A DNA stretch of 64,000 nt from a phage: the sequence record PZ379075.1; one strand, 5' to 3'. This document shows positions 10,624-11,816 of this stretch, piece by piece. The position numbers and the translations under genes were made by a program. A model generated the notes under the pieces. The model did not search any database. It had not been told where the DNA came from and saw only the letters and a program-made list of their open reading frames with translations. The stretch's first letter is position 1; each line of letters begins with the position of its first letter.

Positions 10624-11079
10624 ATGACTACTCGTATCCGTGTTCTTCCTTATGGCCCTTCTGATTCAGTTCGTGAACTTACTTCTGCAATTAACACTAA
10701 GATTCAGGAACTTCGCTTAAATGCTAACGTAATGTCTCTGGTATCAGAAGGCTCTCGTTATCGTTCTCGAGTTGGTGATATTGTTGTCAACTATGGAAAC
10801 CGTCGATATAATGATGCTTTCTTTGGTGGTGCAACTGTATTGAACTCTGTGGTTGCCTTGAACCGAGCCGCTAACAAAATGACAGCATTTCAAACTTTGG
10901 AAGCTGCTGGGGTACATACTGTAGAATACACAAACAGTGCTGCTCAGGCTTCAGAGTGGACTCTGGATAGTGTTGTTTATGAACGTGCTATTCTGAATGG
11001 TCATTCTGGAGAAGGTATCACTGTTCGTCTTCAGGGTGAAGGTGTAGCTCCCGCCCCCTCTATACCCGTGGCATTCTAG
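10624..11079 (+). CDS. ATP-grasp ligase, N-terminal part (frame 1)
   Basis: 151 aa ending ...ILNGHSGEGITVRLQGEG, resembling the glycine-rich ATP-binding loop region of RimK-like ATP-grasp enzymes. The reading frame continues in a different frame downstream. Confidence 0.5.
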   Translation: MTTRIRVLPYGPSDSVRELTSAINTKIQELRLNANVMSLVSEGSRYRSRVGDIVVNYGNRRYNDAFFGGATVLNSVVALNRAANKMTAFQTLEAAGVHTVEYTNSAAQASEWTLDSVVYERAILNGHSGEGITVRLQGEGVAPAPSIPVAF

Positions 11080-11105
11080 GCCCACGTCGTGAATGGCGTG
11101 TTCAT

Positions 11106-11816
11106 GTGTTTGAAGGTGTTATCACCTATGTTCAGAAAAAGATTCGCCGTAATGGTTATCGTGAAGATCCTTCCTATCGTGAAGACGTTCGAAACCATCA
11201 TACTGGTTGGGTTTATTCCTCAAACTTCCAAGATGCGCCGCCTGATCAGGTTCTGATTCAAGCCCACAAAGCTGTATCTGCTCTGGGTTTGAACTTCGGT
11301 GCTGTTGACCTGATTAGCAAAGGTACTAACGCTTGGGTTCTGGAAGTTAATACAGCTCCGGGCCTGACTGGAACAACTCTGGAAACTTACACTCACAACA
11401 TCGTTGAGTTTGTTAAGAGTTTCTCTGGTGTTGATCCTGACTACCGCGTTGCTTACGAACTGCCTGTTGAAGAAGTGGAAGAGTTTGCTGAATCAGCAGA
11501 TGACGAGAACTTTGCATTGACAGCTGAACCAGTTGTTGAAGAGTCTTCGGAGCCTGTTCCTGAAACAATGCAAGTGGAAGAACAAGGGTTAGAGATCAAC
11601 CCTGTAACCCGTCGTACTTTACGTCGTGGTTATTACATCGCTAATATCAAGCACCCTGAGAATGGTTCAACTGTAGCAAGTAATGTGATCTTGTTCTTCT
11701 GTGGTCGTAACTTCTACCGCTCTGGGTGGAATGCACCGATTGGTGATCGCCAGCTTGGTCGTGTGTTGCAGATTAACAGTCTTACCCTGAATGATGGCAC
11801 TGTTGTAAACTACTAA
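11106..11816 (+). CDS. ATP-grasp ligase, C-terminal part (frame 0; open from 11040)
   Basis: EWRVHVFEGVITYVQKKIRR ... ALGLNFGAVDLI ... WVLEVNTAPGL matches ATP-grasp central and C-terminal motifs. Listed start is GTG; the frame is open back to 11040 and overlaps the upstream part across a C5 homopolymer (11054-11058). Confidence 0.5.
   Translation: MFEGVITYVQKKIRRNGYREDPSYREDVRNHHTGWVYSSNFQDAPPDQVLIQAHKAVSALGLNFGAVDLISKGTNAWVLEVNTAPGLTGTTLETYTHNIVEFVKSFSGVDPDYRVAYELPVEEVEEFAESADDENFALTAEPVVEESSEPVPETMQVEEQGLEINPVTRRTLRRGYYIANIKHPENGSTVASNVILFFCGRNFYRSGWNAPIGDRQLGRVLQINSLTLNDGTVVNY

Follow-up and report, generated by a model that had tools for sequence, protein, structure and literature searches.

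The ATP-grasp gene of the phage analysed here is broken at a run of five cytosines, and the sequence as given does contain the resulting split into two reading frames. The whole stretch of 64,000 nucleotides that was analysed (sequence record PZ379075.1) is referred to in the following as the window. The split is probably, though by no means certainly, a homopolymer under-call that arose in the sequencing or assembly of this genome, a conclusion drawn from the pattern of the changes and not from an observation in the reads. According to this explanation, the phage itself would have GCC CCC CTC, with six Cs, and would synthesize one ordinary ATP-grasp enzyme of 397 aa (phiEco32 gp80 family, PHROG 2599), and one C would have been lost from the record. 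Whichever explanation applies, the underlying gene is the known ATP-grasp enzyme of the phiEco32 gp80 type.

The window belongs to a phiEco32-like E. coli podophage (Kuravirus, Gordonclarkvirinae), and the phage collection contains no record identical to it. Over positions 1-19243 the identity with Shigella phage ShigP1 is 99.6-99.95%, and the best overall match of the left 25 kb is SkaterBoy_Bas90 (98.6%). The genome is a mosaic, with a ShigP1-like left 19 kb and a tail-fibre region (about 49.3-53.8 kb) whose identity with any record is only 85-98%; positions 49350-49610 form a hypervariable patch. At 31155-31681 a segment of ~527 nt, carrying a 178-aa ORF (31145-31681), stands as a mosaic replacement for a gene of ~870 nt, the dNMP kinase or 'ATP binding protein' of SkaterBoy and EcP-vB. 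At this site ShigP1 carries a hypothetical gene of 531 nt.

The N-terminal fragment of the ATP-grasp gene is an ORF of 151 aa on the plus strand (10624-11079) that starts with ATG at 10624 and ends in EGVAPAPSIPVAF, followed by the TAG stop codon at 11077-11079. Residues 1-145 are authentic, since they are the same as residues 1-145 of the 397-aa protein of ShigP1 and FS2B, and the final six residues (SIPVAF) are read out of frame. The C-terminal part, also on the plus strand, lies in the -1 frame (11040-11816), which is closed upstream by TGA 11037-11039 and remains open to the TAA stop codon at 11814-11816. It is authentic from the Leu codon 11058-11060 through the stop codon. The first canonical start in this frame is GTG 11106, from which 236 aa are encoded, and no Shine-Dalgarno-like sequence was found upstream of it. 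The two frames overlap by 40 nt (11040-11079), and the overlap contains the C5 run at 11054-11058 of the plus strand, within ccCG-CCCCC-tct, where the frame breaks. Joining the frames takes a -1 (or +2) shift, which is the same as one base being absent from the DNA. If base 11058 is read twice, GVAPAP continues into LYTRGILGPRREWRVHVFEG and a protein of 397 aa is obtained that is identical to the intact protein of ShigP1 and FS2B (P0001). The preliminary description of this DNA had placed the end of the N-terminal part at this TAG, had the C-terminal frame open from 11040, and had the frames overlap for about 40 nt across the C5 run, with a single protein obtainable only by a -1 (or +2) shift. 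These statements were borne out, as was its central claim that a single ATP-grasp gene has been interrupted at the C run by a change of frame of the -1 type.

Comparison with intact homologs had been proposed as a check on that claim. After addition of one C, positions 10624-11816 agree with the ShigP1 gene at 1194/1194 nt and the product is the 397-aa protein, so that over the entire gene nothing but the run length sets the window apart from its nearest intact relative. In the alignment, ShigP1 and phiEco32 read CCCG-CCCCCC-TC and the window reads CCCG-CCCCC-TC. The phiEco32 gp80 protein (ABY52881.1) and its orthologues in ShigP1, FS2B and SkaterBoy are encoded by the same gene at the same genomic position as in the window; the window copy differs from them in having C5 rather than C6 and, as a consequence, is read as ORFs of 151 aa and 236 aa. 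The comparison with C6 at 11054 refers to close relatives that use a CCC proline codon (ShigP1, phiEco32, SkaterBoy). In many other relatives the tract reads GCC CCT CTC, with only four Cs, and in more distant ones GAT GCT CCT CTG. The C homopolymer itself is thus not conserved among relatives, in which the in-frame Ala-Pro-Leu-Tyr is.

Across the tract, 69 of the 72 related phage records have one base more than the window. In these 69, a single polypeptide contains the N-terminal and central part together with the C-terminal catalytic part, which is not so in the window as given. A single ORF of 397-400 aa was likewise present in 10/10 additional contigs from NCBI, ENA metagenome and Logan assemblies, and in a 32-member protein cluster formed at 90% identity the length is 397-400 aa in all 15 members listed. 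The possibility, raised at the outset, that the homologs are naturally two separate polypeptides is therefore contradicted by the single frame in 69/72 relatives. Neither the 151-aa nor the 236-aa fragment was found as a protein by exact look-up in a collection of 15 billion sequences and the contigs that encode them. Scans for the tract pattern, with C5 or C6, in IMG/VR, JGI metagenome contigs and GTDB genomes retrieved only phiEco32, in IMG/VR, and the exact look-ups (of the tract in IMG/VR, JGI and GTDB and of the fragments in the protein collection) yielded no independent assembly of this phage. In phiEco32, ShigP1 and SkaterBoy the gene is a single CDS of 1194 nt annotated as 'ATP-grasp enzyme' or 'ribosomal protein S6 glutaminyl transferase'. 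It follows a glutamine amidotransferase gene and two small ORFs and precedes the GGACT gene and the primase/helicase; the accessory cluster consists of the amidoligase, amidotransferase, ATP-grasp and GGACT genes.

The restored protein matches PHROG 2599 over residues 1-397 (E = 3e-187) and is identical to members of the protein cluster that are named ATP-grasp enzyme. A glycine-rich stretch, GHSGEGI, is found in the upstream fragment, and the RimK/Ddl-like catalytic subdomain (AVDLISKGTNAWVLEVNTAPGL) is carried by the downstream fragment. Matches in Pfam are weak and sub-threshold: PF07478 (Dala_Dala_lig_C) scores 16.8-17.7 bits against a cut-off of 24, and PF08443 (RimK) 16.8 bits against a cut-off of 21. 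Residues ~189-269 align with RimK-type alpha-L-glutamate ligases in the PDB (7qys, 7qyr, 4iwx, 5zct; E = 0.001-0.009) and with the C-terminal domain of D-Ala-D-Ala ligase, including the D..E-x-N Mg/ATP motif. In contrast, the N-terminal 150 residues and a C-terminal extension of ~130 residues (PHROG 20552) have no detectable match. The name 'S6 glutaminyl transferase' is a transferred annotation only. Neither half of the split gene is likely to encode a competent enzyme.

The ATP-grasp tract is not the only shortened run in the window. A census of run lengths against ShigP1, over 54.6 kb aligned at an identity of at least 95%, revealed five one-base contractions in the window and no expansion. 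None of the 344 runs of four nucleotides differed, as opposed to 5 of the 92 runs of five or more, and three of the five contractions break conserved genes, those of the amidotransferase, the ATP-grasp enzyme and a 1473-aa ejection protein. Several changes that all go in one direction, depend on run length and hit a virion gene that should not tolerate a frameshift are what an artefact would be expected to leave. Between ShigP1 and SkaterBoy, a control pair of independent assemblies compared over 65 kb, there are five run-length differences, all intergenic and none in coding DNA. Homopolymer indel artefacts in phage records, caused by flow-based or nanopore under-calling, also take the form of single-base contractions that are confined to the longest runs and break genes that are otherwise perfectly conserved, and records of a common source show them repeatedly in the same contexts; the likeness is one of pattern only. 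Real replication slippage likewise favours long G/C runs and deletions. Because slippage favours the same runs and the same direction, the census alone cannot separate error from mutation. Two further points argue against an under-call. Of the three contractions that break genes, two are located in a single accessory module (amidotransferase and ATP-grasp) and are also present in other records, a picture that would also be obtained if the decay of a dispensable module had been inherited by descent; and 5 affected runs among 92 is a low number for an unpolished long-read assembly.

Besides the C6 to C5 contraction in the ATP-grasp gene, the plus strand has an A6 to A5 contraction at 9938-9942, within the glutamine amidotransferase gene (8151-10180); ShigP1, SkaterBoy and phiEco32 have A6. 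The shortened run shifts the frame of the last ~80 codons, which results in ORFs 8490-10133 and 9968-10180, and addition of one A restores a 677-aa ORF whose product deviates by 1 residue from the SkaterBoy protein. The A5 run is common only to the window and the records EcM-vB1, EcK-vB and EcP-vB. The apparent start of the amidotransferase is ATT 8151-8153, with the codon of the catalytic Cys next to it (ATT TGT GGC, M/I-CGIV...), as annotated in SkaterBoy and phiEco32. ATT is a rare, non-canonical initiation codon, and for this reason ORF finders and several GenBank annotations call a shorter amidotransferase of 547-562 aa that lacks the Ntn nucleophile. The two contractions outside coding sequence are both on the plus strand. 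An A5 to A4 change at 18734-18737 (A5 in ShigP1 and SkaterBoy) is silent; it overlaps and follows the TAA stop codon of ORF 18124-18735 and occurs also in EcP-vB, which has the nearby SNPs 18222 and 18376 in common with the window, and may be a natural variant. A G5 to G4 change at 25703-25706 (G5 in ShigP1) is intergenic and lies in the Shine-Dalgarno-like stretch GAGAGGGG just before ATG 25707.

The fifth contraction, C5 to C4 at 37586-37589, affects a gene on the minus strand (33663-38128) that encodes a virion ejection protein of 1473 aa (PHROG 14629); C4 of the plus strand is G4 in the sense of the gene, and the relatives have five. The gene is thereby split into ORFs 38128-37568 (186 aa) and 37559-33663 (1298 aa), and with one base added the gene is again a single ORF. 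Across the frameshift, none of 97 related records matches the window at 99% or more, as a gapless match would, and all 40 records among the matches listed have one base more than the window at this tract. In phage SU10, gp20-24 are encoded by five consecutive ejection-protein genes, and their products are present in the virion and released on infection (PMC9509320). By synteny the 1473-aa gene corresponds to one of these five, and by analogy with the SU10 virion data it is presumably indispensable. A viable phage with a true frameshift at codon ~180 of this gene is unlikely; hence at least the contraction at 37586 is probably technical, which raises the prior for a technical origin of the others.

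The ATP-grasp tract is one base short in only three of the 72 related records, EcM-vB1, EcK-vB and EcP-vB (GenBank PV574017, PV591327 and PV591328; loci L002, L004 and L005), all from one Egyptian laboratory. In these records the two halves of the ATP-grasp gene are annotated as two 'metal ion binding proteins'. Across this region of 4.4 kb the three are essentially identical to one another. EcM-vB1 reads CCCGCCCCC, as does the window, and EcK-vB and EcP-vB read CCGCCCCCC, so that in the latter two the missing C falls in the neighbouring C3 run. A G that moves by one position between near-identical genomes is the kind of change produced when the calls of two neighbouring C runs are ambiguous. 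Mutation would hardly yield it, since two substitutions or two indels would be required if the ancestor truly had C5. EcM-vB1 has private deletions of 2 nt and 1 nt that split the GGACT gene, and EcP-vB has a private C5 to C4 change in another ejection-protein gene. These records look like low-accuracy assemblies. The three differ from each other mainly by small indels, and their annotations have gaps: EcP-vB has no CDS beyond 45.2 kb and EcK-vB only 26 features. The paper on EcM-vB1 (PMC11699686) precedes the sequencing of its genome, and the sequencing platform is not stated. ZCEC16, an Egyptian Kuravirus sequenced with Illumina whose closest relatives are SU10, ES17 and WFI101126, was considered and is not this phage.

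According to the principal rival explanation, which is possible but doubtful, the lineage of this phage genuinely lost one C by slippage in replication (C6 to C5) only very recently and with it a functional ATP-grasp gene, and the A6 to A5 change in the amidotransferase gene belongs to the same decay of a dispensable peptide-ligase module. Such a decay accords with the location of both frameshifts within one accessory cluster and with their occurrence in all three Egyptian records, in one of which, EcM-vB1, the GGACT gene is split as well; the lack of any other change in the 1194 nt fits a very recent event. On the other hand, the same assembly contains the private frameshift in the 1473-aa ejection gene, which, if real, should be lethal; the five run-length changes are contractions without exception, and in the two good assemblies used as a control pair no coding run differs in length; and the missing C is placed in the neighbouring C3 run in EcK-vB and EcP-vB.

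Common descent of the indels was examined by a four-taxon SNP analysis of the window, ShigP1, SkaterBoy and EcP-vB. In the block 4100-13900, 6-7 SNPs join the window with ShigP1, in which the genes are intact, against SkaterBoy and EcP-vB, and no SNP joins the window with EcP-vB. Since the SNPs group the window with ShigP1, the shared indels conflict with the SNP signal, which is expected for a context-specific error and speaks against a real deletion. Within 8406-12435, however, the analysis revealed no informative SNP, so that none contradicts the idea that two real deletions arose in an ancestor of the window and the Egyptian phages and were passed on to both. The view that the indels common to the Egyptian records prove recurrence was rejected accordingly: it holds only at the flanking informative sites, of which there are none in 8406-12435. 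An under-call and a recent inactivating mutation were two of the three causes offered in the preliminary description; both are possible, the former being favoured, and the third, programmed frameshifting, is unsupported for the reasons given below.

It is very improbable that the C and A runs are contingency (phase-variable) tracts that toggle the accessory ligase module in phage populations, with recurrence in two lineages reflecting hypermutable sites. Both tracts are short in the window and in the three Egyptian records although the flanking SNPs join the window with the intact ShigP1, which suggests recurrence rather than descent. Yet a systematic base-calling error would likewise strike the same sequence contexts repeatedly. 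Known contingency tracts usually comprise 8 nt or more and those considered here only 5-6 nt, many relatives have a C tract broken up by a T (CCT), and among 70-72 records the short state occurs only in those of one laboratory and in the window. In a related scenario, C5 and A5 would be true states that two Kuravirus lineages acquired independently, the short homopolymers serving as recurrent off-switches of the amidotransferase and ATP-grasp module that are leaky through trace slippage of tRNA-Pro; this, too, is highly unlikely.

There is next to no probability that the full-length enzyme is made from the two frames by programmed -1 ribosomal frameshifting or by slippage of transcription at the C run, possibly together with a truncated product of 151 aa. 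The P-site tRNA-Pro on CCC 11056-11058 could re-pair perfectly with CCC 11055-11057, and its slip by one base would restore the wild-type sequence ...APAP-LYTRG..., so that trace spontaneous slippage is chemically possible; this would be ordinary leakiness and not a programmed signal. A heptamer of the type X XXY YYZ is missing: of the zero-frame codons GCC CCC UCU, only CCC has a tRNA that can re-pair in the -1 frame, and UCU in the A site cannot (UCU to CUC). No stimulatory hairpin or pseudoknot was found downstream when 100 nt were folded and compared with shuffled sequences: the folding energy of 11050-11150 is -22.9 kcal/mol and the mean of the shuffles -21.4 (z -0.46), and 61 of 200 shuffles fold as well. 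It is this lack of a slippery heptamer and of a downstream structure on which programmed frameshifting was rejected. Moreover, the two-frame layout is missing from the 69 intact relatives, from the 10 additional contigs and from the listed members of the 32-member cluster; the tract itself varies among relatives between CCC, CCT and GCT CCT; and the same genome would require two more 'programmed' shifts that are absent from every relative. A C5 run is far too short for efficient slippage of RNA polymerase. The window resembles genuine programmed -1 frameshifts of phages (T7 gene 10A/10B, the tail chaperone G/GT) and dnaX in having two overlapping frames that a -1 shift would join; it lacks, however, their conserved slippery heptamer and stimulatory structure, and the overlap is not conserved in homologs.

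With a homopolymer under-call as the favoured explanation, the chief value of these findings concerns data quality. Neither the window nor the EcM-vB1, EcK-vB and EcP-vB records should be taken to document a split or recoded ATP-grasp enzyme, and the gene calls near 9940, 11056 and 37588 should be repaired or flagged. In the passage of PMC10580990 that cites Iyer et al. 2009, the function of the amidotransferase/ATP-grasp module is still only predicted. If the deletion were real, the ATP-grasp and amidotransferase module of phiEco32 would be dispensable for propagation, which would be a modest clue only to its role.
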